A stretch of DNA of 64,000 nt from a virus (UHGV-1378516); one strand, 5' to 3'. Positions 1,048 to 30,846 are shown, numbered from the stretch's first letter. Made by a program: numbers and translations. The notes: a model not told the origin generated them from the letters alone.

Positions 1048-1049
1048 AT

Positions 1050-2072: not shown

Positions 2073-2142
2073 GTACTCCATATCGGATTCGAACCGATAC
2101 ATAACACAGATTTTAAGTCTGGCCTCTCTGCCAATTGGAGTA
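2073..2142 (-). tRNA. tRNA-like gene, short (about 68-70 nt), anticodon loop CTTAAAA (UAA, nominally Leu); non-canonical D-arm
   Basis: T-arm ATCGGTTCGAATCCGAT and acceptor pairing present; D-arm does not fold canonically. Confidence 0.4.
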
Positions 2143-2154
2143 ATGGAGCATTGG

Positions 2155-2227
2155 CGGGGGATGTTGGAATTGAACCAACTTCTTCGATTTCAAAGACCGA
2201 GGTTTTAACCTTGTAAACTAATCCCCT
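2155..2227 (-). tRNA. tRNA-Gln (anticodon TTG)
   Basis: T-arm GTTGGTTCAATTCCAAC, acceptor AGGGGAT/ATCCCCC (1-72 mismatch), anticodon loop CTTTGAA. Confidence 0.55.
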
Positions 2228-2235
2228 TTAAATCT

Positions 2236-2793
2236 TTACTTTCTTAGTGGATGAATAAAGAATGCCAACATAACTCTTTCCCTTGAGAATGCTCTTTCTT
2301 CTGGGACAACGCTTTTAAGTTTCCACCCAACATAAATTCTCCAGTAAAATTGTTTACCAAAGATTTTGATTGATGGCACAAAAGCGAATAACCCCCAAGC
2401 ATTACTGTTCCACATTAGGAGATAACCAGTTTGATTATCTTCAGGGTTAGAACTTACGTTGATATTACCTTTCCACTTAGTAACGTCTTTTACATCTCTT
2501 CCTAACACATGGTAAGAGAAGTTATAAGCTTTGTTTCTCCAGAGCCATCCAACTCTCTGCATGTAGACACCAAGCTTACCAATCTTTCTAATCTTAGCCC
2601 ATCGTTTGATATGACCTGCATCACCATCAATTGGGTTGTCATAAGTCTCCATCCATCTGAACCCGAAAGGCAAGTGTCCTTTCTTCTCACTGTAGAATGG
2701 AACTACAAAAGGTGCTAAGATAACTGCTAAGATTGCTGCAAATGGCTCTAACAAAGCTAAGAAAATCCATGAAGCATACTTTAAGTATCTCAT
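2236..2793 (-). CDS. hypothetical membrane protein embedded in tRNA cluster
   Basis: ORF track 185 aa; hydrophobic N-terminus IFLALLEPFAAILAVILAPFVVPF. Confidence 0.5.
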   Translation of the reverse strand: MRYLKYASWIFLALLEPFAAILAVILAPFVVPFYSEKKGHLPFGFRWMETYDNPIDGDAGHIKRWAKIRKIGKLGVYMQRVGWLWRNKAYNFSYHVLGRDVKDVTKWKGNINVSSNPEDNQTGYLLMWNSNAWGLFAFVPSIKIFGKQFYWRIYVGWKLKSVVPEERAFSRERVMLAFFIHPLRK

Positions 2794-3032
2794 TGTCTAA
2801 TCCTCGTAAGGAGGTAAATGTTATTATTAGTTTCTAAACCTTCTGGTAAAACTGTCTCAAAAATAACACTCTTCAGATGTCTACCACCAAAACAATCACG
2901 TATAAATCTTTCTACTCTAGCGGGGTCACATAAGTATCCCACTTTTAAGAAAATGTGGTGTTCAACACCAATGACCCTGACAAACTCAATACTCTCACAG
3001 TTTTCATGTTCAACTACTGTTAATGTTTGCAT
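2790..3032 (-). CDS. hypothetical protein (80 aa)
   Basis: ORF track; 4-nt overlap with downstream gene suggests translational coupling. Confidence 0.4.
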   Translation of the reverse strand: MQTLTVVEHENCESIEFVRVIGVEHHIFLKVGYLCDPARVERFIRDCFGGRHLKSVIFETVLPEGLETNNNIYLLTRIRQ

Positions 3033-3052
3033 AGTATCACCTTTTTATCTGG

Positions 3053-3125
3053 CGCAGGATAAGGGATTCGAACCCCTATTAACAGCTTCGTAGACTGTTG
3101 CTCTTTCCATTTGAACTAATCCTGC
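3053..3125 (-). tRNA. tRNA-Arg (anticodon ACG)
   Basis: Perfect acceptor GCAGGAT/ATCCTGC, T-loop TTCGAAT, anticodon loop CTACGAA. Confidence 0.7.
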
Positions 3126-3133
3126 AAAATTGG

Positions 3134-3208
3134 TGTTCCAAGACGGATTCGAACCGTCACTAATACAAGGTTTGAGCTTGCATCCTCTGCCAATTGGGAT
3201 ACTGGAAC
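3134..3208 (-). tRNA. tRNA with anticodon CAA (nominally Leu) but short type-I architecture
   Basis: Acceptor GTTCCAG/TTGGAAC, T-arm GACGGTTCGAATCCGTC, anticodon loop CTCAAAC, discriminator A; no long variable arm. Confidence 0.5.
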
Positions 3209-3212
3209 ATGG

Positions 3213-3284
3213 TACTCACTAAAGGACTTGAACCTTTTTCTTCATCTTGTAAGGGTGATGTTTTACCATATAAACTAAGCGAGT
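3213..3284 (-). tRNA. tRNA-Val (anticodon TAC)
   Basis: Acceptor ACTCGCT/AGTGAGT (one GU), T-arm AAAGGTTCAAGTCCTTT, anticodon loop CTTACAA. Confidence 0.55.
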
Positions 3285-3288
3285 ATGA

Positions 3289-3376
3289 AAGAGGTCTGGA
3301 GTTGTGCCGCTAACTCAACTCCGTGGAATTTGTTACGGTCTTCAGTTGACTCAAAGCGGTCTTTCACTTGACCTCT
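3289..3376 (-). ncRNA. tRNA-sized structured RNA candidate without canonical T-loop
   Basis: 7-bp terminal pairing AGAGGTC/GACCTCT spaced 88 nt apart, internal 7-bp hairpin GGAGTTG...CAACTCC; no TTCRANT T-loop. Confidence 0.25.
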
Positions 3377-3383
3377 GAATTGG

Positions 3384-3456
3384 TGCTCCCACAAGGACTC
3401 GAACCCTGATAAGTTGCTTACAAGGCAACCGTAATAACCAATTATACGATAGGAGC
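3384..3456 (-). tRNA. tRNA-Thr (anticodon TGT)
   Basis: Acceptor GCTCCTA/TGGGAGC, T-arm CAGGGTTCGAGTCCTTG, anticodon stem GTTGC/GCAAC loop CTTGTAA. Confidence 0.65.
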
Positions 3457-3466
3457 ATTAATTTGG

Positions 3467-3538
3467 AGCATCCAGAGGGAATCGAACCCTCAACCTCAGT
3501 TTGGAAGACTGTAATTTTCCCGTTTAAACTATGGATGC
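3467..3538 (-). tRNA. tRNA-Gly (anticodon TCC)
   Basis: Perfect acceptor GCATCCA/TGGATGC, T-arm GAGGGTTCGATTCCCTC, anticodon loop CTTCCAA. Confidence 0.65.
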
Positions 3539-3547
3539 ACTAATTGG

Positions 3548-3620
3548 TGGAGTCACCGAGAATTGAACTCGGTTCCCAAGTTTGCAAAACTCGAATTTTA
3601 ACCATATAAACTATGACCCC
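3548..3620 (-). tRNA. tRNA-Ala (anticodon TGC)
   Basis: Acceptor GGGGTCA/TGACTCC with G3-U70, T-arm CCGAGTTCAATTCTCGG, anticodon loop TTTGCAA. Confidence 0.7.
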
Positions 3621-3629
3621 AATGTCTGG

Positions 3630-3702
3630 TACAGGTGGAGGGAATTGAACCCATCGTCTTACTGATTAAGAGTCAGCCGCATAACCATTTTGCTACACCT
3701 GC
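3630..3702 (-). tRNA. tRNA-Lys (anticodon CTT)
   Basis: Acceptor GCAGGTG/CACCTGT, T-loop TTCAATT, anticodon stem GCTGA/TCAGT loop CTCTTAA. Confidence 0.55.
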
Positions 3703-3712
3703 ATTAATTTGG

Positions 3713-3788
3713 TAGGAGACAAGGGATTCGAACCCTCAAGCATCTCGTTCTAAGCGAGATAGGTCTACCAAGTTGCCGTCAATCTCCC
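3713..3788 (-). tRNA. tRNA with anticodon TAG (nominally Leu), type-I length
   Basis: Acceptor GGGAGAT/GTCTCCT (two GU), T-arm GAGGGTTCGAATCCCTT, perfectly palindromic anticodon arm ATCTCG-CTTAGAA-CGAGAT. Confidence 0.5.
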
Positions 3789-4044
3789 ATTAAATCTTTT
3801 TAGAGAACTTCTAAGAACCTGAGCAACAAGGTTCCACAACAAGCGACTAATAACCTTAGAAGCCCTCTAAAAAGACCTAAATAGGTCTTTGCATAGTCTT
3901 GTTTAATCCGGTGACTAGAACCTTTGGAGAGCTTGATATTATCTCTTCTCCGTGACACCTACTAGGTGCTTTGACAGTGTACGACAATACACGAGGGATA
4001 AACCGACAATGCGAACAAGCATGGACGGAGTAAATCTTATTAGG

Positions 4045-4132
4045 CGGTAAGTAAAGGAGTCGAACCCTCACCGTATCTCTACAGTGGCAACAGTTTTCAA
4101 GACTGTTTGGCTGCCATTAGCCGCTACCTACC
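4045..4132 (-). tRNA. tRNA-Ser (anticodon TGA), type II
   Basis: Acceptor GGTAGGT/ACTTACC, T-loop TTCGACT, anticodon stem ACAGT/ACTGT loop CTTGAAA, long variable arm. Confidence 0.6.
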
Positions 4133-4148
4133 CCTAATAAGACTTTGG

Positions 4149-4228
4149 CATGGGACGGAGGAGTTGAACCCCTTTGAAACGGTTTTGGAGGCCGTTGCTC
4201 ATGCCTTAGAGTCTTAACATCGTCCCAT
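4149..4228 (-). tRNA. tRNA-like gene (80 nt), anticodon undetermined (possible 9-nt loop containing CCA)
   Basis: Perfect acceptor ATGGGAC/GTCCCAT and T-arm AGGGGTTCAACTCCTCC; interior does not fold into canonical D/anticodon arms. Confidence 0.4.
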
Positions 4229-4373
4229 ATTATAATTCGAAGCTTACCCTGTTATCTCAACACTGTCAAGCTTCTTCTCAGATTATTTACATGTTCTGGA
4301 AAACATGAGATACAGACCACCTCCCTACAGGAAGACCCGCTAAGGCCGTCTAAGTAATCTGCTAACTATTTGG

Positions 4374-4447
4374 TACACCCTACAGGATTCGAACCTGTAA
4401 CTAACGATTTAGAAGACCGTTGCTCTATCCAATTGAACTAAGGGTGC
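4374..4447 (-). tRNA. tRNA-Arg (anticodon TCT)
   Basis: Acceptor GCACCCT/AGGGTGT, D-arm GTTCAATTGGATAGAGC, T-loop TTCGAAT, anticodon loop CTTCTAA. Confidence 0.65.
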
Positions 4448-4696
4448 ATTATCTTTAAAGACTCTCTTAGAAAGCCCTTAAAGATGCCCACCTTATTAAT
4501 CATACCGTGGGCGAGTACGCCAAATTCTTTGATGAGGGATTGGAAGACCTCACTGGTGTTTAGCCTATCAAGCTACTGCCAGAAAAACATTGTCGTTTGC
4601 ATTTATTTTAAATTTGCAAAATAGACGCTACGCAACGAAAACTAAGGTTACTATAAAGTAGTCACATCTCAATGTCAACAACTTTATTGAAATTGG

Positions 4697-4769
4697 TACT
4701 GGTAGGTGGAATCGAACCACCGATGTTCCCTTATCAGGGGAGTGTTATAACCTTCTTAACTATACCAGC
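4697..4769 (-). tRNA. tRNA-Ile (anticodon GAT)
   Basis: Acceptor GCTGGTA/TACCAGT, T-arm GGTGGTTCGATTCCACC, anticodon loop CTGATAA. Confidence 0.65.
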
Positions 4770-4773
4770 TTGG

Positions 4774-4847
4774 AGGTTCAGATGGGAATCGAACCCACAT
4801 TCATAGGGCTTATGAGACCCTTGCATTACCTTATCTGCGACTGAACC
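4774..4847 (-). tRNA. tRNA-Met (anticodon CAT; initiator-like GGG/CCC in anticodon stem)
   Basis: Perfect acceptor GGTTCAG/CTGAACC, T-loop TTCGATT, anticodon stem AGGGT/GCCCT loop CTCATAA. Confidence 0.6.
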
Positions 4848-4854
4848 ATATTGG

Positions 4855-4927
4855 TAGAAGTGGAGGGATTCGAACCCATCGCCTGTCAGATTAAAAGTCT
4901 GCCGCATCACCATTCTGCTACACTTCC
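4855..4927 (-). tRNA. tRNA-Lys (anticodon TTT)
   Basis: Acceptor GGAAGTG/CACTTCT, T-loop TTCGAAT, anticodon loop CTTTTAA. Confidence 0.6.
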
Positions 4928-5126
4928 ATTAAATTATCTTTGTAGATAAGCTACCCAGACTTGCTTAAGGTCTGTAGCGATGTGCCTTTTGGGTTTAAAT
5001 CTAGAATTTACCCATTCACCCTTTGTGGTCGCATACTCACAGGTAAGCTTAATAACTTATCTACAAAGATAATTACCAGACCGTTGTTTATCATCTTAAG
5101 TGCTACCATTACACCAACTCGACATC

Positions 5127-5172
5127 TGCCGAGTGAAGGAATCGAACCTTCGCCTTTTCTTTACCGGAGAAA
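5127..5172 (-). pseudogene. tRNA remnant: 3' half (T-arm + acceptor 3' strand) plus an anticodon-arm-like hairpin (loop CCGGTAA), no matching 5' acceptor strand
   Basis: T-arm GAAGGTTCGATTCCTTC present; no complementary 5' acceptor strand within 100 nt. Confidence 0.3.
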
Positions 5173-5358
5173 TAGATTGTTTAAGTTTTGCTGTAAACGG
5201 TCTTCTGTAAATTTGTTGAGCCAGACCAAGTTTTAAATTTTCAAAATTAAATTGGCTTGAAATTTCATACGTTCTTGCTGTATTTGGTCTTCTGCTCCTT
5301 TAAAGAATACTCGTAAGAACTCTTTAAGGGAGGGGCTAAATAGCCCTCTCAAAATTGG

Positions 5359-5433
5359 CGGTTACGAAGGGATTTGAACCCTCATCATCTCCCGTGACAG
5401 GGGAGTATTTTAACCAGATTAAACTACATAACC
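5359..5433 (-). tRNA. tRNA-Asp (anticodon GTC)
   Basis: Acceptor GGTTATG/CGTAACC, T-loop TTCAAAT, anticodon stem CTCCC/GGGAG loop CTGTCAC. Confidence 0.65.
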
Positions 5434-5441
5434 TTTATTGG

Positions 5442-5526
5442 TGTGCCGTGTAGGAGTCGAACCTACCGAGTCTCAATGACAAGGGATTTACAGTCCCCAC
5501 CGCTACCATCTACGGGATAACGACAC
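5442..5526 (-). tRNA. tRNA-Tyr (anticodon GTA), type II
   Basis: Acceptor GTGTCGT/ACGGCAC, T-arm GTAGGTTCGACTCCTAC, anticodon loop CTGTAAA, long variable arm. Confidence 0.6.
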
Positions 5527-5598
5527 ATTTAATTTCTATTCAGGCTAAGGACTTGCACCTTACAAATCGGTGAGCAATCGCTTCTCTCCTAAATTTGG

Positions 5599-5672
5599 CG
5601 GTTAGTCAGGGATTCGAACCCTGTGCCATTCGCTTAACAGGCGACCGCACATACCTTATGTGCTTCCTAACC
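5599..5672 (-). tRNA. tRNA-Asn (anticodon GTT)
   Basis: T-arm CAGGGTTCGAATCCCTG, acceptor GGTTAGG/ACTAACC, anticodon loop CTGTTAA. Confidence 0.6.
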
Positions 5673-5759
5673 ATGTTTAGTATTACCAGACCGTATCTTT
5701 CAATTTTTTCCGCTAAAAATTTAATAAATATTGCTGTAAACGGTCTTCTGTAAATTTGG

Positions 5760-5833
5760 AGGCGGGTGCAGGAGTCGAACCTGCCGATACCATGCTAATG
5801 AGACATGTGAGACGCCCTTTCTCTATACCCGCA
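5760..5833 (-). tRNA. tRNA-Met (anticodon CAT), 1-72 mismatch
   Basis: T-arm GCAGGTTCGACTCCTGC, acceptor TGCGGGT/ACCCGCC, anticodon stem CATGT/GCATG loop CTCATTA. Confidence 0.55.
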
Positions 5834-5927
5834 ATTCTTAATGACCAGACCAAATCTCTTCTTTGTCCGATTTACCTTCAGATGAATAAGATTAAGTTTG
5901 CTGTAATTGGTCTTCTGTCAAAACTGG

Positions 5928-6002
5928 CGTTCCAGAAGGGATTTGAACCCTCAAATATCCACTTTGAAAGAGTGGTGACTTTACCATTTTGTCTACTGGA
6001 AC
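5928..6002 (-). tRNA. tRNA-Glu (anticodon TTC)
   Basis: Perfect acceptor GTTCCAG/CTGGAAC, T-loop TTCAAAT, anticodon stem CCACT/AGTGG loop CTTTCAA. Confidence 0.65.
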
Positions 6003-6012
6003 ATTAATTTGG

Positions 6013-6086
6013 TCTCTGTTGGAGGACTTGAACCTCCGGCCTTACCGCCCCAAACGGAACGCTCTACCAAGCTGAGCTAAACAGAG
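6013..6086 (-). tRNA. tRNA-Pro (anticodon TGG)
   Basis: Perfect acceptor CTCTGTT/AACAGAG, canonical D-arm GCTCAGCTTGGTAGAGC, T-arm GGAGGTTCAAGTCCTCC, anticodon loop TTTGGGG. Confidence 0.65.
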
Positions 6087-9377: not shown

Positions 9378-9749
9378 ATGAAAGCTAAGAGTGCAAAAGA
9401 CTTTTATTGCTTCCTACAATCCTATATCAATTCCGTGCAAAATGGTGAAAGGTACAACCTTAATGATGTTATCCCAACACCTTTGACATGGAGACTCAGT
9501 AAATGGCCTGAAGAAGATATTACACCAACAATCGAACAATGCACCTACAAACCCGAAATAAATATTCCAGACTCTGAGAATCTATTATATCCAATGTTCC
9601 ATATTGTTGGTCTTGGAAGATTCCTTATGGATATCCAGTATGTAATTGGTAAAGGTTATAAGGTTAAAGGTATTGTTGTTGGTGATGTATCTCCGCATCA
9701 CAAAGGTTATTTTAGACTAAACGCACATTTAGAGGCTAAAAAGAAATGA
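9378..9749 (+). CDS. hypothetical protein, paralogue of the N-terminal domain of the following Ig-like protein
   Basis: Shares motifs with 9746-11131 N-terminus (...FxxxxxxNVxxGxRY..., WPEE/WPEAD, DxxYxIG...). Confidence 0.5.
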   Translation: MKAKSAKDFYCFLQSYINSVQNGERYNLNDVIPTPLTWRLSKWPEEDITPTIEQCTYKPEINIPDSENLLYPMFHIVGLGRFLMDIQYVIGKGYKVKGIVVGDVSPHHKGYFRLNAHLEAKKK

Positions 9750-11131
9750 TTAAAGCAAAGACTTACCCAGACTTCAAAGAGTTTGTGAAGGGCTTCATTG
9801 CAAATGTAAAGGCTGGTAAGAGATATGATTTTAGAACATATCAAGAGGCTATTTTACCACTCACCTATAGTTCATATTGGCCTGAAGCTGATATTGCAGA
9901 AGTTGAGGAGTTTGACTACAAACCAGACTACAAAGTCCCATTTAGCGATGAGTTGCTTTACAGCGTTGGTGCTCAAATGAGAACTTCTGACTTCTTCATG
10001 GACTTACAATATACAATTATCAATGGTAAAGACGTTGATACAGTTTATTGTGAATGGCTGGCAAGAGTTAAACCGTTCTCAATGTTGAATGCTAAGTTGA
10101 AGGATGCTATCAAGCCACCAGCAATCACTCAGCAACCAACCAATCAAACAGTAAATGAAGGTGGTACACTTAACCTAAGCGTTATTGCAACTAATGCCAC
10201 AGGATATCAATGGAAAAAAGATGGTGAGGATATCACTAGCGCCACATCTGCAACCTACACAAAACAGTCTGTAGTACCTTCTGATGCAGGTTCATACACT
10301 TGCGTTGTATCTGGAGAGGCTGGAACAAGCGTTACCTCAGATGCGGCAACAGTTACTGTTAACGCACTACCTGTGATTACACAGCAACCTTCTAGCCAGA
10401 CCATCAATGAGGGTGGAAACATCAGCTTGGAAGTGACTGCAACGGGTGCAACTGGTTACCAGTGGAAGAAAGATGGCTCTGACATTCCTTCGGCTACAGA
10501 GGCTACCTATAGCAAGTCTGGTGCTCTGCCAGCAGATGCAGGTTCATACACTTGCGTCGTAACAGGGGCAGGTGGTTCTGTTACTTCTAGCCCTGCAACT
10601 GTCACGGTAAATGCTTTACCAGTTATTACCAAGCAGCCAACCAATCAGGTAGTTAATGAGGGTAGCTCTTTGACACTGAGTGTTGAGGCGACAGGTGCGG
10701 AAGGTTACCAGTGGAAAAAGGACGATGTGAACATCCCTAGTGCAACTGGTGCAACTTACACGAAAGCTAACGCAGTTCCTGACGATGCTGGTTCATATAC
10801 CTGTGTAGTTACTGGTGCTGGTGGCACAACAGTCACATCTAATGCTGCAACGGTTACTGTGAATGCACTTCCTGTAATCACTCAACAGCCAATCAATCAA
10901 GAAATCACTGAAGGTGAGACCTTAACGCTGAATGTTGTGGCAACAGGTGCAACAGGCTATCAGTGGAAGAAGGGTGAGGAAAACATCCCAGACGCAACTA
11001 CTGCAACTTACACCAAAGAAGGTGCAACCACTGCTGATTCAGGAAGCTACACTTGTGTAGTGACTGGCGCAGGTGGCTCTGTAACATCTAATGCGGCAAC
11101 AGTTACAGTTAACCCAGCAGGGGAGGCATAA
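9746..11131 (+). CDS. Ig-like (I-set/Big-like) repeat protein, 4 tandem ~82-aa domains; Hoc-like decoration or adhesin candidate
   Basis: Repeated unit P(V/A)ITQQPxNQxxNEGxxLxLxVxATGATGYQWKKDGxDIxSATxATYTKxxxxxxDAGSYTCVVTGAGGxxTSxxATVTVN. Confidence 0.65.
   Translation: MIKAKTYPDFKEFVKGFIANVKAGKRYDFRTYQEAILPLTYSSYWPEADIAEVEEFDYKPDYKVPFSDELLYSVGAQMRTSDFFMDLQYTIINGKDVDTVYCEWLARVKPFSMLNAKLKDAIKPPAITQQPTNQTVNEGGTLNLSVIATNATGYQWKKDGEDITSATSATYTKQSVVPSDAGSYTCVVSGEAGTSVTSDAATVTVNALPVITQQPSSQTINEGGNISLEVTATGATGYQWKKDGSDIPSATEATYSKSGALPADAGSYTCVVTGAGGSVTSSPATVTVNALPVITKQPTNQVVNEGSSLTLSVEATGAEGYQWKKDDVNIPSATGATYTKANAVPDDAGSYTCVVTGAGGTTVTSNAATVTVNALPVITQQPINQEITEGETLTLNVVATGATGYQWKKGEENIPDATTATYTKEGATTADSGSYTCVVTGAGGSVTSNAATVTVNPAGEA
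10123..11106 (+). repeat. 4 tandem ~246-bp coding repeats (Ig-like domains)
   Basis: Units begin near 10123, 10369, 10615, 10861. Confidence 0.7.
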
Positions 11132-11595
11132 TGCAACTCTCACAGAAAGGTTTAGAAGCTATTAAGTTCTTTGAAGGTCTGAAGCTAGAGGCTTACGAAG
11201 ATTCTGCTGGAATCCCAACAATTGGGTATGGGACTATCCGTATTGCTGGTAAGCCTGTTAAGATGGGTATGAGGATTACCGCTGAACAAGCTGAACAGTA
11301 TCTTCTCGCAGATGTTGAAAAGTTCGTTGCAGCAGTGAACAAAGCCGTCAAGGTTCCAACTTCTCAGAATGAGTTTGACGCACTTGTAAGTGAAACATAC
11401 AACATTGGCATCACAGCCATGCAGGACTCTACATTTATCAAGCGCCACAACGATGGTAATAAGGTAGGTTGTGCAGAAGCTATGCAGTGGTGGAACAAGG
11501 TTACAGTCAAAGGTAAGAAGGTCACTTCAAACGGCCTGAAAAACAGACGTAGAATGGAAGCTGACATTTATCTTGACAGTGTATACCCAAAGTAA
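11131..11595 (+). CDS. endolysin, T4-lysozyme-like (GH24) muramidase
   Basis: N-terminal signature EGLKLEAYEDSAGIPTIGYGT matching catalytic Glu/Asp/Thr region of T4 lysozyme; 154 aa. Confidence 0.8.
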   Translation: MQLSQKGLEAIKFFEGLKLEAYEDSAGIPTIGYGTIRIAGKPVKMGMRITAEQAEQYLLADVEKFVAAVNKAVKVPTSQNEFDALVSETYNIGITAMQDSTFIKRHNDGNKVGCAEAMQWWNKVTVKGKKVTSNGLKNRRRMEADIYLDSVYPK

Positions 11596-22897: not shown

Positions 22898-23110
22898 ACC
22901 TACCTGCACGATTCTAAAATGATTTTTCTTGCCCGACCTGAGCGGGGTCTGCACGTTTTGAAAATGAAAAATCTCTTTGGAGATTACCTGCACAGTTTGA
23001 AAATGAATTTCCTCTTTGGAGTTCAAAATTTCCTCTACAGATTTCTCTATAGAAATATACCTGCACAATTCTGAAATGAAAAAGCCCTCCTTACCTGAAA
23101 AATTTACCAG
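22898..23110. repeat. four direct repeats CCTGCACNNTTYTRAAATGA(W) with CTCTTTGGAG-like spacers, preceded by a G-rich tract (22850-22890)
   Basis: Copies at about 22898, 22946, 22988, 23061. Confidence 0.5.
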
Positions 23111-23152
23111 ATAAGAAAGGCTTAGTCTATTGTGAATATCCTACGAAGTTTC

Positions 23153-23938
23153 TTAGTTCTTTGCGTCTAAGAAGGTAACTTCTGGCGAAGAGAAAACTGT
23201 CTCAATATCCTCATCAGTTCTTGCATAGATGTAAGTGTCTGCATCACTGCCAAATGTTACTGCAATCCTGTGATTGCTCTTCGACAGGTGGGTAACTAGA
23301 GCGTTACTTAGAGACATCTTTTCAACCGGAGGGTTACTTTGATGTATCTTACCTTTTCTTCGTCTGAAGAGGGTAACTGCATTATCCGTGAACACAACTA
23401 CACCTGCGAAGTATTCTGGTTCACAGTAGTTCTTCCAACCTGAGCGTAACTTGTGGTACATCTCTCCTTCATAGACATATAGATAAACATCTACACTCTT
23501 CATTGCCTGATTGATGATAACTGTGACGGCTTGAGGGTCCAACCCACCGATACCTGCACCAATCATAGGTAAACCAACTTTCTTCAACTGATTAACTTCA
23601 CAGTATCTGTTAAGCTGTTTCAAAGATGACTCTAAAGCACTGTATCGGGCATCTTTACCAGTCTTAAGCTGAGTGTAAAGGTTAGCTATACGGCCTTGTT
23701 TTACACGTGCTACAGAGAAATTACCCAGTAAATTTTCACAGGGTTTGTGTCCTATACCACCTGCATATAGATAAACTTCTGTATCGGTCTCATATGCTTT
23801 TGGGTAAAGTTTAGAAATCTTGTCAGCGATACCTGCACCCATTAAATTCATACAGTTGCAACCGTGACCGATGATGTCAAACTTACCTTTATCAAATGCG
23901 GAAAAGATATCACCGTTGATAATTTTTACAATACCCAT
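23153..23938 (-). CDS. macro-domain-like protein (putative ADP-ribose binding/processing) with C-terminal extension
   Basis: N-terminal GDIF...DIIGHGCNCMNLMGAGIA and later VGLPMIGAGIGGLD resemble the GDIT...VNAAN...GGGV and ...FPAISTGVYGYP elements of macro domains (by-eye alignment to E. coli YmdB). Confidence 0.45.
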   Translation of the reverse strand: MGIVKIINGDIFSAFDKGKFDIIGHGCNCMNLMGAGIADKISKLYPKAYETDTEVYLYAGGIGHKPCENLLGNFSVARVKQGRIANLYTQLKTGKDARYSALESSLKQLNRYCEVNQLKKVGLPMIGAGIGGLDPQAVTVIINQAMKSVDVYLYVYEGEMYHKLRSGWKNYCEPEYFAGVVVFTDNAVTLFRRRKGKIHQSNPPVEKMSLSNALVTHLSKSNHRIAVTFGSDADTYIYARTDEDIETVFSSPEVTFLDAKN

Positions 23939-23939
23939 A

Positions 23940-24140
23940 CTAATAATGCTCCCAACGTTGCATGTCTTCGGATGGTTTTACACGGTTACCCTCATGGTCT
24001 ACATAACCTGCACCACAACCTTCACAGATAACTGGCATAGCTGAACCAGCTTCAAACTCTTCTTTGGTGAAGAGACCTTTCAAGTCCCCTGTATCAACAC
24101 CAAAATGTTCTATTGCACACTTCTTGCAGAAATCAGCCAT
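23940..24140 (-). CDS. small zinc-ribbon protein
   Basis: CKKC ... CEGC Cys pairs in 66 aa. Confidence 0.45.
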   Translation of the reverse strand: MADFCKKCAIEHFGVDTGDLKGLFTKEEFEAGSAMPVICEGCGAGYVDHEGNRVKPSEDMQRWEHY

Positions 24141-24360
24141 GAATAATTACCTCTTGAATGATGATACCTTTACCACAACGGCTTTTAAAGTCTTCCAATG
24201 GTTGGGAGATGAAGCCACGCAAGCAATCACTAAATACTAAGTTTTTCCTGTAGGCTATCACATCGTTTGCTGTAAACGGGATGACTTCATTTCTTCCAAT
24301 GAATACTGCTGACCGGATGAGTTTCCGTGTCTTTTTATCTCTGGCTAGAATTACTCTCAT
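24133..24360 (-). CDS. hypothetical protein (75 aa)
   Basis: ORF track; overlapping neighbours. Confidence 0.4.
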   Translation of the reverse strand: MRVILARDKKTRKLIRSAVFIGRNEVIPFTANDVIAYRKNLVFSDCLRGFISQPLEDFKSRCGKGIIIQEVIIHG

Positions 24361-24661
24361 AATTTACCTTCTCAGTTAGCTCATATAAATCAACATGCTC
24401 AATACTATCAATGTTGATATCAATCTTTTTGAAGCGTTCTATCACTTCGTTGTCAGTCATCCATATCAGACACCAATGATTCTGAATGGATTCTTCAAGA
24501 AGGTCAACACAATCTTTAAAAGTTTTTGTATCACTTCTCGTTCCAACTACTGCGATTGTTCCATATAGCCACCCACCATTGCCATAAGATACTTGCGCTA
24601 CGCCAACTTCTTTATCTTTCTCGTAGTAAACGGCTACAAAGTCTCTTCCATTAATCTGCAT
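24335..24661 (-). CDS. hypothetical protein (108 aa)
   Basis: ORF track. Confidence 0.45.
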   Translation of the reverse strand: MQINGRDFVAVYYEKDKEVGVAQVSYGNGGWLYGTIAVVGTRSDTKTFKDCVDLLEESIQNHWCLIWMTDNEVIERFKKIDINIDSIEHVDLYELTEKVNYESNSSQR

Positions 24662-24663
24662 AG

Positions 24664-24933
24664 TTACTTCCTCGTTTTAAGAACTGCTAAGATTTCTTTA
24701 GAGTCTGGTAAGAACCATGTGTAGTGATTCTCTTTGATTTCTGGATGAGTGTCAACCTTTATTTTGCACTCTTTACCAACATGCTTAAGCTGTGCTGTGA
24801 CACCCTGCATAAAGATATGACACATCACATTATCCATAATGGTTGGTATAAAGTCAATTCGCATATAAGTTTCTTTTGGTCGCGGTAACAGTAAGTACCC
24901 TTCTACGTAAAAAGTATCTTCATTCTCTGTCAT
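24664..24933 (-). CDS. hypothetical protein (89 aa)
   Basis: ORF track. Confidence 0.45.
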   Translation of the reverse strand: MTENEDTFYVEGYLLLPRPKETYMRIDFIPTIMDNVMCHIFMQGVTAQLKHVGKECKIKVDTHPEIKENHYTWFLPDSKEILAVLKTRK

Positions 24934-25199
24934 TGCTGTTTATTTCCTAATAAAATCATATCAATAAGGTTATTAGCTTTGATTGTGCACTGGTAAAATC
25001 CATCACGATAGAACTCAAGGGCTGCTGCCACATCACTACCAGTATTGCCTTTGATAGTGAATCTTGAATCTTCTTGAGTGTACTTATCACTCTCACTTAC
25101 TTGGGAGTTTTTGAATGTACTGCTCACTTTGTTCGTTGAACACCCTGACATAATTATCAGTAACACAAACATTATAAAACTCTGGCTTAGTTTTTTCAT
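24930..25199 (-). CDS. o-spanin-like outer-membrane lipoprotein (Rz1-like), overlapping the i-spanin gene
   Basis: Signal peptide with lipobox LIIMSGC; gene starts inside the 3' end of 25093-25440 in another frame. Confidence 0.5.
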   Translation of the reverse strand: MKKLSQSFIMFVLLIIMSGCSTNKVSSTFKNSQVSESDKYTQEDSRFTIKGNTGSDVAAALEFYRDGFYQCTIKANNLIDMILLGNKQQ

Positions 25200-25440
25200 A
25201 TGTTAGTACCTCTTTTGTGTGCTTATTCTTAGCAAGCACATCTTTCAAATCATTTTTGTAATTGGTGCTCAGTGTAGCTAATCCTTCCTGATAAGCGTCT
25301 TTAGCTACACTTATCAGCTTCTCATTGTTTAGCTCAGTTTCAGCAACTTGGTAGTCTCTGTAAGAGTATCCTCCCCAGACACCTGCCCCAACTAAGAAAA
25401 CAATTATGAAAGTAGCTTGACAGAACTCTTTAAATGTCAT
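25093..25440 (-). CDS. i-spanin-like protein (Rz-like): N-terminal TM helix + periplasmic domain
   Basis: TM segment FIIVFLVGAGVWGGY followed by charged helical region; overlapped architecture with lipoprotein gene. Confidence 0.55.
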   Translation of the reverse strand: MTFKEFCQATFIIVFLVGAGVWGGYSYRDYQVAETELNNEKLISVAKDAYQEGLATLSTNYKNDLKDVLAKNKHTKEVLTYEKTKPEFYNVCVTDNYVRVFNEQSEQYIQKLPSK

Positions 25441-25457
25441 TTAACAATCTCCTGAAA

Positions 25458-25480
25458 TGAAAAAGGCTCCCGAAGGAGCC
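25458..25480 (-). terminator. rho-independent terminator
   Basis: Hairpin GGCTCCTTCGGGAGCC followed by T-run on minus strand. Confidence 0.65.
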
Positions 25481-25492
25481 TGTATCTTAACC

Positions 25493-25972
25493 TTAACCGA
25501 GGACTTTAGCAAGGATATTTGCAGCCATCGAAGAAGCTTTTGCAGCAGCAACTACGCCAGCTTTGACAGTGCTATCCTTAATAGCAGATACCGTTGCAGC
25601 ATCAGTAAAGAGATAAGTGATTGTTTTGGAACCACTTGTAAAGGAAAGCATAAGAGTAGTTTCCAGATTGAAAGAGCGATACGGAGCACCTTCTTTAACG
25701 ATACCTTCAGCACCTAACTCTGAAGCCTTACCCATATCATAGATAGTCATCAGGTTTTCTTTGTGTGCAGTCGTTGAACCAACACCTTTTACGTGCTTCT
25801 TAACGTTCAACAATGCACGATATTCACGAATGCTGCCATCAGCTTTTACATTAACAGCACGGAAAATTTTACCTTCAAAGTTACCTTGAATCATTTTACG
25901 AACTACTTCAGATTTGTTTGCCGTATCATCCAGTGCTACCGTAATGATATTGTTCATAAGTTTTTCTCTCAA
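25493..25972 (-). CDS. hypothetical protein (159 aa)
   Basis: ORF track. Confidence 0.45.
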   Translation of the reverse strand: MREKLMNNIITVALDDTANKSEVVRKMIQGNFEGKIFRAVNVKADGSIREYRALLNVKKHVKGVGSTTAHKENLMTIYDMGKASELGAEGIVKEGAPYRSFNLETTLMLSFTSGSKTITYLFTDAATVSAIKDSTVKAGVVAAAKASSMAANILAKVLG

Positions 25973-26664
25973 TGTTTAACTAACATGGTTTTAATGTGTG
26001 GAAGGATTCTGTTTACCTTCTGAACATTCTTCTCTGTATCTTCTATAAAGCATACTATATTAAAGTAAGGAAGAATGCAAGACTGAATCATCCTCACTTT
26101 CAAACTTTCTGCACTTATAGAGTTAGTTCCAAAACCACGCATAAAAAGCAAGTAATCATGCTCTATATTGTGCCTTAAAAACATCTCAGTAGGTATTCTC
26201 TGAGATTCACCTCTTGCTGTCAAGAGTCCAACTGCTGCATGATTTGCAATTGCATCAATAATGTTGAAAACATATGTTGGTTTTGCTCTTACAGAATCAA
26301 GAAGATTAGTGTACTGTGAGAATGACCCATCAGTCAATTCCGTTGAGCAATCTTCGTGATTAAAATTTGTAAGAACACCATCAATATCTGCTAAGATGAG
26401 GTTACCTTTTTCTACAAGGTCTTTATTGACTATCACTAAACTATCACGCCTTACACCTATAGCTTGTCCAGTCTCTTTGTCCACAACGTTCACAATGGGT
26501 TCTGATGTGTGGAACTCTTCAAGTGAACATACAACCTCTCTTGCAGTGTCTTCAAAATCTCTGCACTGTTCTGGAGTCCATACACAGGAATCAAGACCTA
26601 ACTCATGAGGATGCAAGTCATAAGCGTGGCACAGGACTTCATCAGACTTTCTTAATTTTTTCAT
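25969..26664 (-). CDS. HAD-superfamily phosphatase-like protein (possible nucleotidase)
   Basis: Motif I-like LILADIDGVLT and downstream GLLTAR / IEDTEKN elements. Confidence 0.4.
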   Translation of the reverse strand: MKKLRKSDEVLCHAYDLHPHELGLDSCVWTPEQCRDFEDTAREVVCSLEEFHTSEPIVNVVDKETGQAIGVRRDSLVIVNKDLVEKGNLILADIDGVLTNFNHEDCSTELTDGSFSQYTNLLDSVRAKPTYVFNIIDAIANHAAVGLLTARGESQRIPTEMFLRHNIEHDYLLFMRGFGTNSISAESLKVRMIQSCILPYFNIVCFIEDTEKNVQKVNRILPHIKTMLVKH

Positions 26665-27190
26665 GATTTACCTTAGAAATGTTTGTTGCAAATTCACATT
26701 GAGCGATAACTTTCATATTGTTATAGACATCTTGAGAGTATTTCTTAGCTTTAGGGATTTTGTACGAATACCCAGCATTATATGATGCTAAAACTTTTTG
26801 TAAAGTCTTCTTTGACTTTGGGTGACCATGTACCTTCGTCCAAAACTCAAGCTCTTTATGTGTTTCTTTTGCGGCATAGTCAAAATCTTTTAAGAGTTTC
26901 TTTTTAGCAACATTAGGACTAATTTTGTTACGCTTTACAACAGTCTTCAAGTGATTCTGGAAGATACCGTAGTCATGGGTCTTTTTATTTTCTACCTTCA
27001 GACCTAACTCTGACTCTTGTAAGGCTATAGCTGCTAGAGTGATACCCCAACCTTTACCCATGTTATTCTCACCATACTGGTAAGCTTTTAACATGTTCAC
27101 TTTTTGGCTAATTGATAGCTCTGGGCAGTCAACTGCATAAGATAAGTGTGCTGTAAACATTAAGCACAAACCTAGAATCAATTTCTTCAT
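26642..27190 (-). CDS. secreted lytic-transglycosylase-like (SLT domain) protein
   Basis: Cleavable-looking signal peptide MKKLILGLCLMFTAHLSYA; AIALQESELG...YGIFQ resembles SLT catalytic region. Confidence 0.45.
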   Translation of the reverse strand: MKKLILGLCLMFTAHLSYAVDCPELSISQKVNMLKAYQYGENNMGKGWGITLAAIALQESELGLKVENKKTHDYGIFQNHLKTVVKRNKISPNVAKKKLLKDFDYAAKETHKELEFWTKVHGHPKSKKTLQKVLASYNAGYSYKIPKAKKYSQDVYNNMKVIAQCEFATNISKVNHEKIKKV

Positions 27191-27246
27191 TGGTTCTCCT
27201 GTTTAGTTTATCGTGACAACAATTATACAGCACTCTGCACAAAATA

Positions 27247-27274
27247 CAAATAAAAAAGGCCGCCGAAGCAGCCT
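27247..27274 (-). terminator. rho-independent terminator
   Basis: Hairpin GGCTGCTTCGGCGGCC followed by TTTTTTATTT on minus strand. Confidence 0.6.
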
Positions 27275-27290
27275 TTTAAGAAATTACTTA

Positions 27291-28400
27291 TTAGATTTCA
27301 CGTTTACGTTGAGAGATAAGTTCACCAGCAGTGCCAACGATGACATGCAAAGCTTCAGTCTTACCGTCCCATGCTTCCAGCACTTTACGTTGATTATCAA
27401 CGATTGCTGCAACTTCATAACGAGAGGAACGCATCTTCATATCGTTGTAATCAGTTGGAACAGATACAACATCTCGTGGGTGGACACGAACTTTCAGGAT
27501 TGTATCACCTGAGAAGCTGCGAACATAATCCCAAGCACCAACATGAAGACCTTGAGAGCAAGTCACGTTACGGTTATTATCAACCATCCAACGTGGCATC
27601 TCTACAATGTTACCCAAATCGTTAGGAACTTTGTAGGTGTGGGAGTCAACCAGCTTACCTTCACGAGTAGAGACTTTCTTCCAACCAATGATGTAGCCTT
27701 CTTCATCAATCTCAACATCGAGATGAGATACGAATCCCCAAAGCTGTTCTACAGAGTCTTTTGATGGGTTTTCCATCAGTTTTTCGAAGAACATTACAAG
27801 TCGTTCAAAACCTTTATCACCAGTCTTCATCATGTGAAGAATACGGTCAACCAGAGTAGAACGCATCTCAACAGCACCGTAGAAGAGCTTGTCACCTTTG
27901 ATTGTGATAGCACCCTGAGTGAAGTTTTCGATAGACTTACGAATGTTCATCAGTTCAAATGCTTTCTTGAACTCACCTTTCACAACATGAACTACAATCT
28001 CTTGATAGTTTGGATGAGTAGACTCAACAATTTCAGATTCTGAACCATAAGTCATAATTACAGAATCACCAGTAATCATGTACTCAATCTTGTCATCTTT
28101 CTGCATAGCTTCGTGCAGTTTATTTACTGGAGCTTTCTGTACAGTGTCTTTAACGACCTTTTCAACTGGTTTGCCAGCTTTCTTTTTAAAAGTCTTAGCA
28201 ACTTGTTTCAAAGTCTTCGTAGCTGGTGTAGAAGTTACCTTTTTATTCCCTTTTAGGGTTGCTTCATGACGCTCTACAGCACGACCAACTGAACGGGTTG
28301 AAGTGTTAAATTTCTGTGCAATAGCTGTTTTGGTCAGCTTACCTTCTTTAACCAGTTTGTAAATTTCTGCGTCAATCTGTGCTTTAGTTTTAGTAGTCAT
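27291..28400 (-). CDS. rIIB: rIIB-like protein (assignment by position next to rIIA-like gene; N-terminal HTH-like segment)
   Basis: 369-aa ORF immediately downstream of rIIA-like gene. Confidence 0.35.
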   Translation of the reverse strand: MTTKTKAQIDAEIYKLVKEGKLTKTAIAQKFNTSTRSVGRAVERHEATLKGNKKVTSTPATKTLKQVAKTFKKKAGKPVEKVVKDTVQKAPVNKLHEAMQKDDKIEYMITGDSVIMTYGSESEIVESTHPNYQEIVVHVVKGEFKKAFELMNIRKSIENFTQGAITIKGDKLFYGAVEMRSTLVDRILHMMKTGDKGFERLVMFFEKLMENPSKDSVEQLWGFVSHLDVEIDEEGYIIGWKKVSTREGKLVDSHTYKVPNDLGNIVEMPRWMVDNNRNVTCSQGLHVGAWDYVRSFSGDTILKVRVHPRDVVSVPTDYNDMKMRSSRYEVAAIVDNQRKVLEAWDGKTEALHVIVGTAGELISQRKREI

Positions 28401-28479
28401 CTTATTACTCTCTCTTGTTAGTTAATCAATCAATTTGTGAGGCTATTTTAAGGGGCTTTGAAGCCCCTTGTCAAACACT

Positions 28480-30846
28480 TTAATCGTAAATTGTAGTCCC
28501 TTCTGGAACACACTTCACATCAAAGCCTAAAAACTTACTCACTTCGATAGGTGATACTTTATTCCAATCTAAGTGTGAAAGCAAGAAGTTTTCTTGTTTT
28601 CTTTTTGAAAGATAGTTTGTCAGCTTAATAACCATGCGGTCACCAGCTTTCTTAATCTTTTTGTACAGTTTTGTGTCATTATCAAGGCATGACTTCAAAT
28701 CCTGAAGAACACTGATAGTGTAAGTGTATGCAAACGGTGCAGCCACATACTGAATCTTACCGAACATTGCCTCAACAGCATCTTCATTCCCTTCTAAGAA
28801 GATTGTCTTAATAGTATCCCTTGAATAACAATACCCACGAGAAATCTTCCTGTTATTAAACGTAAAGTTTCTGGCAATAATCCAACTGCTTGTAAGGTCA
28901 AGGACACCATTCATATAGATACGTGTCATATATCTGTTATGGTTAATCCAGTGAACATCAGTTAAGCTGTCATTCAAGAGTTTCTCATCTACTTCAATCC
29001 AATCTTCTGGTATCTTTTTCCAATTTGCTTTTCGGAAAACATAGACTGTCTTACCTGTAACATTAGCAACTGACTTAGCTACATCTTCTGGAGATGAGCA
29101 AAAACATCTACCATCAACTGTGTCACCAACTGCCTTAATGTAAAGTTGAGGTTCTTCAATTGTGTCTAAGTCTTCTGACACCTCTTTGTATGAAGCTACA
29201 GATTCTGCTGGAACAGCTTTCCATAGTTTTACAACACCTCTCACAGCCTCTTTACGCTGATAATGATGCTCCTTATCAGACATTTTCACAATCTTTAACA
29301 AGCTTTTATCAAGTTTGTGTAGATTGATTAAATCATCTAACTCTTTTTCAGTCGAGAATACAAACACAATACCATTGTATCTGTGGAACAGGCCTGACTC
29401 GTTAGCGTAGTCTCGACATGCACCACGCAAGATTTGATTTCGTCCTACAGTCTTCTCAGTACCGTTTTTATTGCGACGGTCATTAATCACGAACAAAAAC
29501 TGTTCAATTTGGCTTTTACGCATTGCACCAAAGATATTGAACATGCTTGCCTCTTGAGTGTAGGAAAGTGCTGTTGCACGAATCTTACTCTCTAAAGAGT
29601 TGAACTTGACATAAGCAACTGGGTCATAAAGATAATCTACTTTAGGGATATTGTTCCCGTTCCTATCAACCTTAATATTGCCTTTACCGTCACGTTCATA
29701 AATGACTGAGCCGTCTTCTGCGTAGATAATTCCACGACGAATGTTTAACAATTCTTCTTCCAGAGAATCAAGCTTAACGCCTCCCCACTCTAGCTTTGGA
29801 CACACAGCATTAAACATCTCTCGTGAGTTCAAACGTAACTCTGCATAAGCCTGTGCAGCATCCATGAGTGTAGGTTGGCTATTAACTTTCTTGATAACAT
29901 CCTTTGTAATTGCTTCAGTTATCTTTTTGGTAGCCTCGATGATAACATTTTTTGTCGTATCATTCATCTGCAATGCTTCACGAGAAGCTGCTATAGCAAC
30001 TGAACCAATAGGCATGTAGATGTTTACAAGGTCTACGCTCCTACGGAAAAACTCTGGCAAGACTTTGAAGAAATCATCACCAAGTAACGCTTCCATGTTC
30101 ACTGGATAGGCAATATTACCCATCACCACATTAAACTCTGTCCTGTTACCACTAGAACGCCAGCTTTGCTTATGAATCATGGCATCATAAACACCTTCTT
30201 CACGGGCAATGACGTTCATATCTGCTAATACATCGTCGTACTCAATATTACTTTCTGGTTTTACAGTGAAGTATGAGTACACATTCCCAGCTTCTTCAAA
30301 GAACTTTGAGATACGGTGGTCAGCAACTGCCACACGTACAGCTAAACCATTAGGCTCTTTTGTTGGGTTAGTTGTCAGCTTAGTTACTTGAGGGATGCCA
30401 TTCTCAAGATAAACAGAGTACTTATTAACAACACCGTCAACATAGCTAGACACTGTGAATGACTGAGCAATTGCAAATGGGGATTTTGAGCCGATACCCA
30501 TTGCACCAATGTAGTCATTAGAGTCATTCTTCGTAGAAGCCCCGTAGTTTAGGTACAAACTCATAACTTTATCATGAGTCAATCCAGTTCCAAAATCACG
30601 AACTTCAAAGTAAGGCTCAAAACGAGTAGGTAAATGCACATGGAACGGAATGTTCTCTTTTCCAGCTTCTTTCTGAGCATCTACTGCGTTACATGACAGT
30701 TCACGAATCACTGCCCTTTCTTTAAAGGTATATACACCAGAACTCAAAAGGCTGAACATCTCAGGTGTCATTGTAATCTGTGCTTGAGACGTCTCTAAAG
30801 AAGTTGAACTCTTAATCACTTCTGCGTGGTCATTTACCATGCGCAT
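28480..30846 (-). CDS. rIIA: rIIA-like protein with N-terminal GHKL (histidine-kinase-like) ATPase domain
   Basis: GHKL N-box RELSCNAVDA, G1 box VRDFGTGL, G2 box GAMGIGSKS; 788 aa. Confidence 0.55.
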   Translation of the reverse strand: MRMVNDHAEVIKSSTSLETSQAQITMTPEMFSLLSSGVYTFKERAVIRELSCNAVDAQKEAGKENIPFHVHLPTRFEPYFEVRDFGTGLTHDKVMSLYLNYGASTKNDSNDYIGAMGIGSKSPFAIAQSFTVSSYVDGVVNKYSVYLENGIPQVTKLTTNPTKEPNGLAVRVAVADHRISKFFEEAGNVYSYFTVKPESNIEYDDVLADMNVIAREEGVYDAMIHKQSWRSSGNRTEFNVVMGNIAYPVNMEALLGDDFFKVLPEFFRRSVDLVNIYMPIGSVAIAASREALQMNDTTKNVIIEATKKITEAITKDVIKKVNSQPTLMDAAQAYAELRLNSREMFNAVCPKLEWGGVKLDSLEEELLNIRRGIIYAEDGSVIYERDGKGNIKVDRNGNNIPKVDYLYDPVAYVKFNSLESKIRATALSYTQEASMFNIFGAMRKSQIEQFLFVINDRRNKNGTEKTVGRNQILRGACRDYANESGLFHRYNGIVFVFSTEKELDDLINLHKLDKSLLKIVKMSDKEHHYQRKEAVRGVVKLWKAVPAESVASYKEVSEDLDTIEEPQLYIKAVGDTVDGRCFCSSPEDVAKSVANVTGKTVYVFRKANWKKIPEDWIEVDEKLLNDSLTDVHWINHNRYMTRIYMNGVLDLTSSWIIARNFTFNNRKISRGYCYSRDTIKTIFLEGNEDAVEAMFGKIQYVAAPFAYTYTISVLQDLKSCLDNDTKLYKKIKKAGDRMVIKLTNYLSKRKQENFLLSHLDWNKVSPIEVSKFLGFDVKCVPEGTTIYD

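Follow-up and report, generated by a model that had tools for sequence, protein, structure and literature searches.

The stretch of DNA analysed here, referred to as the window, is a 64,000-nt sequence from a virus (UHGV-1378516). We focus on a minus-strand region in which a pair of spanin genes, encoding a protein of the inner membrane (i-spanin) and a lipoprotein of the outer membrane (o-spanin), lies close to a gene for a protein with similarity to the SLT domain (the SLT-like protein). The 2.8 kb around these genes share 98.5% nucleotide identity with Escherichia phage ECML-1 (Felixounavirus), and 258 phage records match the region, nearly all of them Felix O1/wV8-like myophages of the genus Felixounavirus. 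Judged by these matches, the window is a Felix O1/wV8-like myophage belonging to Felixounavirus. The region holds the following genes and features, with sizes in nucleotides (nt), base pairs (bp) or amino acids (aa):

28480-30846, minus strand: rIIA
27291-28400, minus strand: rIIB
27254-27277, minus strand: terminator-like hairpin (10-bp stem, TTCG loop, T-run) in the gap between rIIB and the SLT-like gene
27222-27227, minus strand: perfect TATAAT hexamer, 31 nt upstream of the ATG of the SLT-like gene
26642-27190, minus strand: predicted exported GH23 (SLT/goose-lysozyme-like) glycosidase, 182 aa; phrog_600, E=1.3e-57
25969-26664, minus strand: HAD-type phosphatase, labelled 'polynucleotide kinase', 231 aa; phrog_3970, E=1e-134
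25493-25972, minus strand: hypothetical protein, 154-159 aa; phrog_2267
25464-25481, minus strand: terminator-like hairpin (7-bp GC-rich stem, TTCG loop, T-run) in the gap between the hypothetical gene and the i-spanin gene
25093-25440, minus strand: i-spanin, 115 aa; phrog_1152 'Rz-like spanin', E=8e-42
25093-25199, minus strand: dual-coding overlap of 107 nt, encoding the i-spanin C-terminus and the o-spanin signal peptide
24930-25199, minus strand: o-spanin, 89 aa; phrog_4180, E=4e-50, and phrog_456 'Rz-like spanin', E=8e-5

We identify the SLT-like protein as orthologous to T4 Vs.1, a conserved uncharacterised open reading frame (ORF) of T4-like phages in which marginal SLT similarity had been noted (Nolan et al. 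2006, PMC1524935). The two proteins align in BLASTP with 32% identity over 174 residues (E=2e-16), hhalign gives a probability of 99.7%, and a single PHROG family, phrog_600 ('unknown function'), holds both (window protein, E=1.3e-57; T4 Vs.1, E=2.1e-68). They are also alike in length (182 vs 181 aa), in their N-terminal signal and in the motifs E-S, G-x-F-Q-N and S-Y-N-x-G. T4 Vs.1 differs in lacking a Cys22/Cys165 pair and an Asp at the position of D60 in the enzyme EtgA (see below), both of which the Ounavirinae proteins have (the Asp as D73). The genomic neighbours differ as well, being rIIB and the HAD phosphatase gene in the window and regB and vs in T4. The orthology is a result of sequence comparison, and it is unlikely to be overturned. 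By tblastn, Vs.1-type homologues were found in 2,129 of 50,697 phage records, their carriers being T4-like, Vi1-like and Felix O1-like phages and Vibrio phages; a profile search returned 604 clusters at 50% identity (E<=1e-10).

Family-level comparisons point to a peptidoglycan-cleaving enzyme. Against the Pfam SLT model (PF01464, curated cutoff 21.3 bits), T4 Vs.1 scores 25.1 bits, over the cutoff, and 14 of 15 aligned homologues match when scanned singly (best E=8e-12). A database search recovered 21 relatives with identity down to 31%, several of which carry precomputed SLT domains. Residues E59, G63, Q78, Y137, N138, G140 and Y151 are invariant in the alignment and stay so after T4-like, Vi1-like, Vibrio-phage and Acinetobacter-phage members are added, and the GH23 motifs E59-S60, G75-x-x-Q78 and S136-Y137-N138-x-G140 are invariant or nearly so in two alignments. 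We also built an alignment-based AlphaFold (AF2) model of the protein, with a predicted local distance difference test (pLDDT) of 84.6. All of its Protein Data Bank matches with probability >0.5 are lysozyme-like glycosidase folds, mostly GH23 (template-modelling (TM) scores ~0.35-0.53, E no better than 6e-3); they include g-type (goose) lysozyme, a GH23 chitinase, EtgA, the Campylobacter Slt Cj0843, MltE, MltF and phiKZ gp144. Compared with viral models, the prediction aligns to phage 'SLT domain' proteins at TM 0.7-0.8.

The best solved relative by sequence profile is EtgA (E=7e-4), whose active-site residues E42, D60, Q65, Y116, N117 and G119 (PMC10880428) align to E59, D73, Q78, Y137, N138 and G140 of the SLT-like protein. 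Like EtgA, IagB and IpgF, the window protein is small (~150-190 aa for the group), carries a Sec signal and a GH23 fold, and has the 'hybrid' site of Glu and Asp followed by Q and Y-N-x-G. However, the similarity to these enzymes is weak, and the window gene is phage-encoded, lies in a phage early-gene arm and is without a secretion-system context or a known partner such as EscI. Against the NCBIfam IagB model, two of the 15 homologues gave a marginal match (best E=1.5e-4), and the window protein itself gave none. We predict that the SLT-like protein is a GH23 peptidoglycan glycosidase; its sequence cannot separate a lytic transglycosylase from a muramidase, a choice that is not settled for EtgA either (PMC10880428). 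The Vs.1 orthology, the EtgA-like active site and the GH23 fold of this 182-aa protein are what the present analysis adds.

The glycosidase is also predicted to be exported. Here and below, signal-peptide, lipobox and transmembrane calls were made by hydrophobicity calculation and inspection of the sequence. The N-terminus consists of an n-region (MKK), a hydrophobic core of 12 residues (L4-L15) and an A-x-A motif in S-Y-A/V-D, the slash marking the predicted cleavage site, which gives a predicted signal peptide of aa 1-19 (nt 27134-27190). The A-x-A motif is conserved among Ounavirinae homologues, and of 144 full-length family representatives, 133 carry a hydrophobic segment at the N-terminus. 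In ten diverse members, Cys22 and Cys165 are either both present (seven) or both absent (three), never one alone, a co-occurrence consistent with a disulfide whose formation would be confined to the periplasm. An earlier, sequence-only reading of this DNA had proposed a secreted SLT-domain protein on the minus strand within 24930-27190, and the signal peptide, the SLT matches of the homologues and the GH23 fold all bear this out. A signal-anchor-release (SAR) endolysin was considered for the same protein and rejected on sequence inspection, given the Leu/Ile/Phe-rich core with ~31% Gly/Ala/Ser/Thr and the conserved A-x-A cleavage motif.

The spanin pair, its overlapped layout and the dispersal of the lysis genes were previously published and annotated. 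i- and o-spanins stand at the same position in the GenBank records of fjerdesal, JLBYU32, Mushroom, Mordin and others, and Kongari et al. (2018) placed Felix01, WV8, Mushroom and Moogle in the JH2 i- and o-spanin families (SpaninDB; PMC6139136). That catalogue classes the Felix O1 group as 'Overlapped', and its JH2 i-spanin family also includes phiEco32-like podophages (PMC6139136). The window pair is a further member at ~95-98% identity, from the same phage group and with the same overlapped architecture, 115-aa i-spanin, 89-aa o-spanin and one periplasmic Cys in each; we saw no substantive difference. In two records the annotated o-spanin start is too short, so that the signal peptide and lipobox are lost: fjerdesal (locus L001, 3629-3850) and Zyzzx (locus L012, 1493-1672). 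The full ORFs, 270 nt in fjerdesal and L012 1493-1789 in Zyzzx, recover both elements.

The i-spanin gene has a ribosome-binding site (AGGAG), and its product a hydrophobic segment at aa 6-24 (Kyte-Doolittle 19-mer mean 1.75) with no second segment. The o-spanin ATG follows its own ribosome-binding site (AGAGG) and is set 241 nt inside the i-spanin gene, in the +1 frame. The o-spanin N-terminus, MKKLSQSFIMFVLLIIMSG followed by C, is made up of a basic n-region, then a hydrophobic core and finally a lipobox, read by inspection as IMSG/C20 with Ser21 at +2; because the +2 residue is Ser, sorting to the outer membrane is predicted. The sequence-only reading had made its spanin assignment depend on a transmembrane segment and a lipobox, and these manual calls find one in the i-spanin and the other in the o-spanin. 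It had further described the lipoprotein gene as embedded, which does not hold: the two genes share 107 nt and the o-spanin gene reaches 163 nt past the i-spanin stop, so the architecture is 'overlapped' and not 'embedded' as in lambda. Lambda Rz/Rz1 belongs to the same functional class and has the same topology, a type II inner-membrane protein and an outer-membrane lipoprotein encoded in different frames of the same DNA, but there Rz1 lies wholly inside Rz. The mature proteins differ too, lambda Rz1 being 40 aa long and proline-rich whereas the mature window o-spanin has 70 aa and no proline.

When the six reading frames of the 64-kb window were scanned for lipoprotein signals, just two loci emerged, the o-spanin among them; T4 PseT.2, the positive control, was recovered by the scan. 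The other is an ORF at 55957-56214 (plus strand, 85 aa, MNNKVKSCVKAMVALGVIFLAG followed by C, Asn at +2; phrog_902, unknown function), which sits among plus-strand replication genes; its product could be an exclusion-type lipoprotein.

Both spanin frames carry a signature of selection. We compared substitutions by codon position between the window spanin genes and those of Citrobacter phage Mordin. In the segment coding for the i-spanin only, 54 of 241 nt differ (22%), 30 of them at i-frame third positions, and in the o-spanin-only segment 44 of 163 nt differ (27%), 28 at o-frame third positions. Within the overlap the difference is 13 of 107 nt (12%), about half the flanking rate, with no codon-position bias in either frame. 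The halved rate without codon bias, together with the third-position excess outside the overlap, therefore indicates that both frames are under selection, and by this signature the pair is more than two chance ORFs. With its PHROG matches, transmembrane segment, lipobox and dual-frame substitutions, the minus-strand spanin pair of the earlier reading thus stands, as an overlapped pair.

Sequence features relevant to spanin function are also conserved. C92 and the F-x-N-x-C motif of the i-spanin are invariant across four Ounavirinae genera. At 26-78% identity, the o-spanins of Mooglevirus, a Hafnia phage and Kolesnikvirus retain the lipobox Cys, C71 and an L-I-D-x-I-L motif at the C-terminus; the lipobox Cys and C71 are retained in Mordin, Zyzzx and vEam_PM_21, and in three other genera the lipobox itself reads LMSGC-S, ITSGC-S and TASC-S. 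Of 528 catalogued spanin systems, 507 have one or more periplasmic Cys residues for intermolecular disulfides (PMC6139136), and the window pair offers C92 of the i-spanin and C71 of the o-spanin. The overlap region at 25133-25200 shows ~80% nucleotide identity to the phiEco32-like podophages 172-1, PGN6866 and myPSH1131, which fits a JH2 i-spanin family that spans Felix O1-like myophages and phiEco32-like podophages and suggests that the spanin module has been exchanged between the two groups.

Elsewhere in the window, an ORF at 63222-63593 (minus strand, 123 aa; phrog_4038, unknown) has an N-terminal transmembrane segment followed by a coiled-coil-like region and gives weak DivIC and filament-type matches. 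Its topology resembles that of an i-spanin, a holin or an antiholin, and no partner lipoprotein gene was seen for it.

The other lysis genes of the window lie apart from this region:

11131-11595, plus strand: soluble GH24 endolysin, 154 aa; Pfam Phage_lysozyme, E=1e-40; phrog_7 endolysin
2236-2793, minus strand: holin candidate, 185 aa; one N-terminal transmembrane segment; DUF7338

The endolysin has no signal and no transmembrane segment (maximum hydrophobicity 0.79). The Pfam match confirms the GH24 lysozyme that had been read on the plus strand at 11131, some 14 kb away, and the distance to the i-spanin gene is 14.3 kb from start to start. One base is common to the endolysin ATG and the stop codon of the gene immediately upstream (9746-11131, plus strand), whose 461-aa product has four tandem immunoglobulin-like domains and is called a tail protein in some records; the arrangement implies co-expression of the endolysin with a structural gene.

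A holin with one transmembrane domain has been proposed for Felix O1-like phages (PMC4392139), and the gene named 'holin' in phage Mushroom maps to 2236-2793. Its window product has no similarity to T4 T (BLASTP E=1.4), matches only DUF7338 in Pfam, and is possibly a holin, as a candidate by topology only. As in the sequence-only reading, which had identified no holin with confidence, neither PHROG nor Pfam assigns a holin family to any small membrane protein in the window. This gene and another protein ORF (1050-1847) lie within a cluster of 26 transfer RNA genes at 875-6086 (minus strand); the transfer RNAs of phage Mushroom are annotated on the strand opposite to the ARAGORN calls in the window. 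The dispersal of the lysis genes, also part of the earlier reading, agrees with genome papers in which Felix O1-like lysis genes are scattered in the manner of T4 (PMC4319497, PMC4392139).

T4 offers a parallel in layout. Its spanins PseT.3 and PseT.2 have 117 and 99 aa, against 115 and 89 aa in the window. Each of the two pairs has early genes around it and a pseT-type phosphatase gene nearby; in T4 as in the window, endolysin, holin and spanins lie dispersed, and rIIA/rIIB occur (PMC4392139). The T4 spanin genes are 'separated' and lie upstream of pseT, whereas those of the window are overlapped and lie downstream of the phosphatase gene.

Taken together, we consider it likely that the phage combines a T4-style dispersed lysis system, with a two-component spanin, and a separate accessory Vs.1-type glycosidase, the spanin pair and the glycosidase being two separate things that happen to be neighbours. 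The glycosidase gene lies ~1.2 kb upstream of the spanin pair, and two genes without a lysis role, those for the HAD phosphatase and the hypothetical protein, stand between them. The hairpins at 27254-27277 and 25464-25481 flank a unit made up of the glycosidase, phosphatase and hypothetical genes, and terminators are annotated at both hairpin positions in phage Mordin. The TATAAT at 27222-27227 might be a -10 element of the sigma-70 type, accompanied by no more than a weak -35; it was missed by a consensus scan, the -35 matching at <4/6 positions.

Comparison with other phages separates the glycosidase from lysis genes in a similar way. Lysis fails in T4 e mutants despite the presence of vs.1, and Vs.1 therefore does not substitute for the endolysin in T4. 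There vs.1 lies ~73 kb from pseT.2/pseT.3 and, like the spanin genes, falls into the early class at the RNA level and the middle class at the protein level (PMC9697503 supplements). On an unrelated phage contig (L007), the homologue lies on the opposite strand, 6 kb from a cassette (L007 13776-15400) of a Phage_lysozyme gene and, near it, a u-spanin-like gene for a lipoprotein with a C-terminal transmembrane segment. At L007 8001-8878 the homologue itself is followed, with a 4-nt overlap, by a gene for a lipoprotein of 100 aa, apparently rich in beta structure and with an aromatic-rich C-terminus; this lipoprotein might be a partner or an inhibitor. Another relative, in locus L006 (38% identical), keeps the order rIIA-rIIB-...-glycosidase-phosphatase, and no lipoprotein gene was found within 5 kb of it. 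The earlier grouping of all these genes as lysis-related holds for the spanins and is weakened for the SLT-like protein, which is tied to them by proximity only; the hairpins, the Vs.1 orthology, the timing and distance in T4 and the L007 contig speak against its inclusion.

Several observations weigh against this picture. The order rIIA-rIIB-glycosidase-phosphatase-...-spanins is conserved in four Ounavirinae lineages, for which ancestry alone need not be the explanation; a functional connection with lysis could lie behind it. The downstream hairpin ends 24 nt before the i-spanin ATG and leaves no room for a promoter; the spanins may therefore come from read-through of the glycosidase unit, that is, be co-transcribed with it. 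The window SLT-like protein, scanned alone, scores 18.8 bits against the Pfam SLT cutoff of 21.3. A single-sequence AF2 model of the i-spanin is all-helical (H3-36, H40-71, H75-84, H86-110) with a mean pLDDT of only 48.7, so that the helical periplasmic domain suggested for it rests on a low-confidence model. The window spanins have no sequence similarity to T4 PseT.3/PseT.2 beyond the lipoprotein signal, so what the window pair has in common with T4 is its organisation rather than its descent by homology. Finally, a limited literature search found no functional study of the Vs.1 family, the literature on its function consisting of the 2006 comparative-genomics remark and an omics timing table.

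The sequence-only reading had left two options for the SLT-like protein, a second, Sec-exported endolysin or a cell-wall remodelling factor. Sec-exported and SAR endolysins are established kinds, and an enzyme of this sort could act independently of the holin or be held until the membrane depolarises. The N-terminal export signal and the intact GH23 active site would suit such a role, the gene lies near the spanins in four Ounavirinae lineages, and several GenBank records call its product a 'putative lysin'. We nevertheless regard a second endolysin as unlikely: the N-terminus resembles a cleavable signal and not a SAR anchor, the phage already has a canonical soluble endolysin, the T4 orthologue is transcribed early and does not rescue lysis in e mutants, and the L007 homologue stands outside the cassette of lysozyme and u-spanin-like genes. 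Of the two options, the remodelling factor fits better, and the glycosidase is probably not a second lysis enzyme.

A more specialised role would be that of a 'gap-maker', in the manner of EtgA, IagB and VirB1, opening the peptidoglycan locally for an envelope-spanning structure, for which the spanin bridges would be the obvious candidate. The resemblance to EtgA, a type III secretion enzyme with the same active-site residues, the matches of two family members to the IagB model, and a size and signal peptide like those of the specialised enzymes all point this way, as do the conserved spanin neighbourhood in Ounavirinae and the early expression of both Vs.1 and the spanins in T4. Yet the similarity to EtgA is weak (E=7e-4; TM ~0.45-0.53), the T4 genes lie ~73 kb apart, the L006 relative keeps the glycosidase-phosphatase pair with no lipoprotein gene in its locus, and lambda and many other phages assemble spanins without such an enzyme. 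We find this role quite improbable.

Very unlikely, in our view, is a function in conflict between phages or with the host, in which the glycosidase would hinder superinfecting phages or take part in lysis inhibition together with rIIA/rIIB. Every member of the Ounavirinae examined, the 38%-identical L006 among them, carries the gene immediately downstream of rIIA-rIIB, the T4 orthologue is expressed early, and roles of this kind are known for further early exported proteins of T4 (Imm, Sp, RI). Against this, vs.1 is not adjacent to rII in T4, and the catalytic residues indicate wall cleavage, which nothing ties to exclusion.

That the protein is an endoribonuclease like T4 RegB has practically no chance of being right and is rejected at the level of both sequence and fold: although homologues in several GenBank records carry an 'endoribonuclease/RegB-like' label, BLASTP against T4 RegB gives E=19, T4 RegB belongs to a different PHROG family (phrog_1323), no RegB Pfam match is found and the fold is that of GH23. 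The label occurs in Mushroom, Mordin, mistaenkt, allotria and JLBYU31. Records KP143762, NC_041977, MN850587, MT074471 and OK272473 are among those concerned, and labels of this kind extend over Felixounavirus, Mooglevirus, Ackermannviridae and T4-like phages. It is probably explained by label transfer, because T4 vs.1 adjoins regB.

Under the preferred reading, of dispersed lysis genes and an accessory Vs.1-type glycosidase, the infection might proceed as follows. Soon after infection the glycosidase would be exported through Sec and cleaved after Ala19, with a Cys22-Cys165 disulfide probably stabilising it, and in the periplasm it would carry out low-activity or local wall remodelling well ahead of lysis rather than act as a lytic endolysin. 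The i-spanin would be anchored in the inner membrane through its N-terminal helix, and the o-spanin would be lipidated at Cys20 and sorted to the outer membrane. The two would bridge the periplasm, the conserved Cys of each probably forming intermolecular disulfides. At lysis, a holin, possibly the DUF7338 protein, would permeabilise the inner membrane and release the soluble GH24 endolysin; once the peptidoglycan is degraded, the spanin complex would be uncaged and fuse the inner and outer membranes as the final step.

The remaining features of the region add little to lysis. The HAD phosphatase product (25969-26664) contains the DIDGVL motif (DxDG, HAD phosphatase); a P-loop (G-x4-GK[ST]) is absent on direct reading, and a Pfam scan gives no match. 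Its 'polynucleotide kinase' label was rejected, as the alignment to T4 PseT is weak and restricted to the phosphatase half, and the kinase part of the annotation looks like over-annotation. No test points to the hypothetical protein at 25493-25972 as a lysis gene; a homologue of it is retained in the distant locus L006. The ORFs on the plus strand here are all short and lie opposite well-supported minus-strand genes, and GC skew is negative throughout. Rfam and repeat scans of 23000-29000 returned only the two hairpins, with one sub-threshold small RNA match at a hairpin.

These results have consequences for annotation. The 182-aa protein would be better described as a Vs.1-type exported GH23 glycosidase than as a RegB-like RNase, and the o-spanin starts in some records should be moved, as they cut off the signal peptide. 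The spanin part of the finding matters little in itself, having been published and annotated before. As a tentative and somewhat doubtful suggestion, the Vs.1 family may perform a dedicated, so far unrecognised step ahead of lysis, for example opening the wall for spanin bridges, conditioning it for fast lysis, or exclusion; the evidence singles out no one among these roles. The wider interest lies in the family as a whole, predicted to be secreted wall-cutting enzymes, conserved in thousands of large virulent phages including T4, where it is expressed early. Felix O1-like phages and T4 are tractable systems in which the role of this family could be addressed, a question that reaches beyond the present window.

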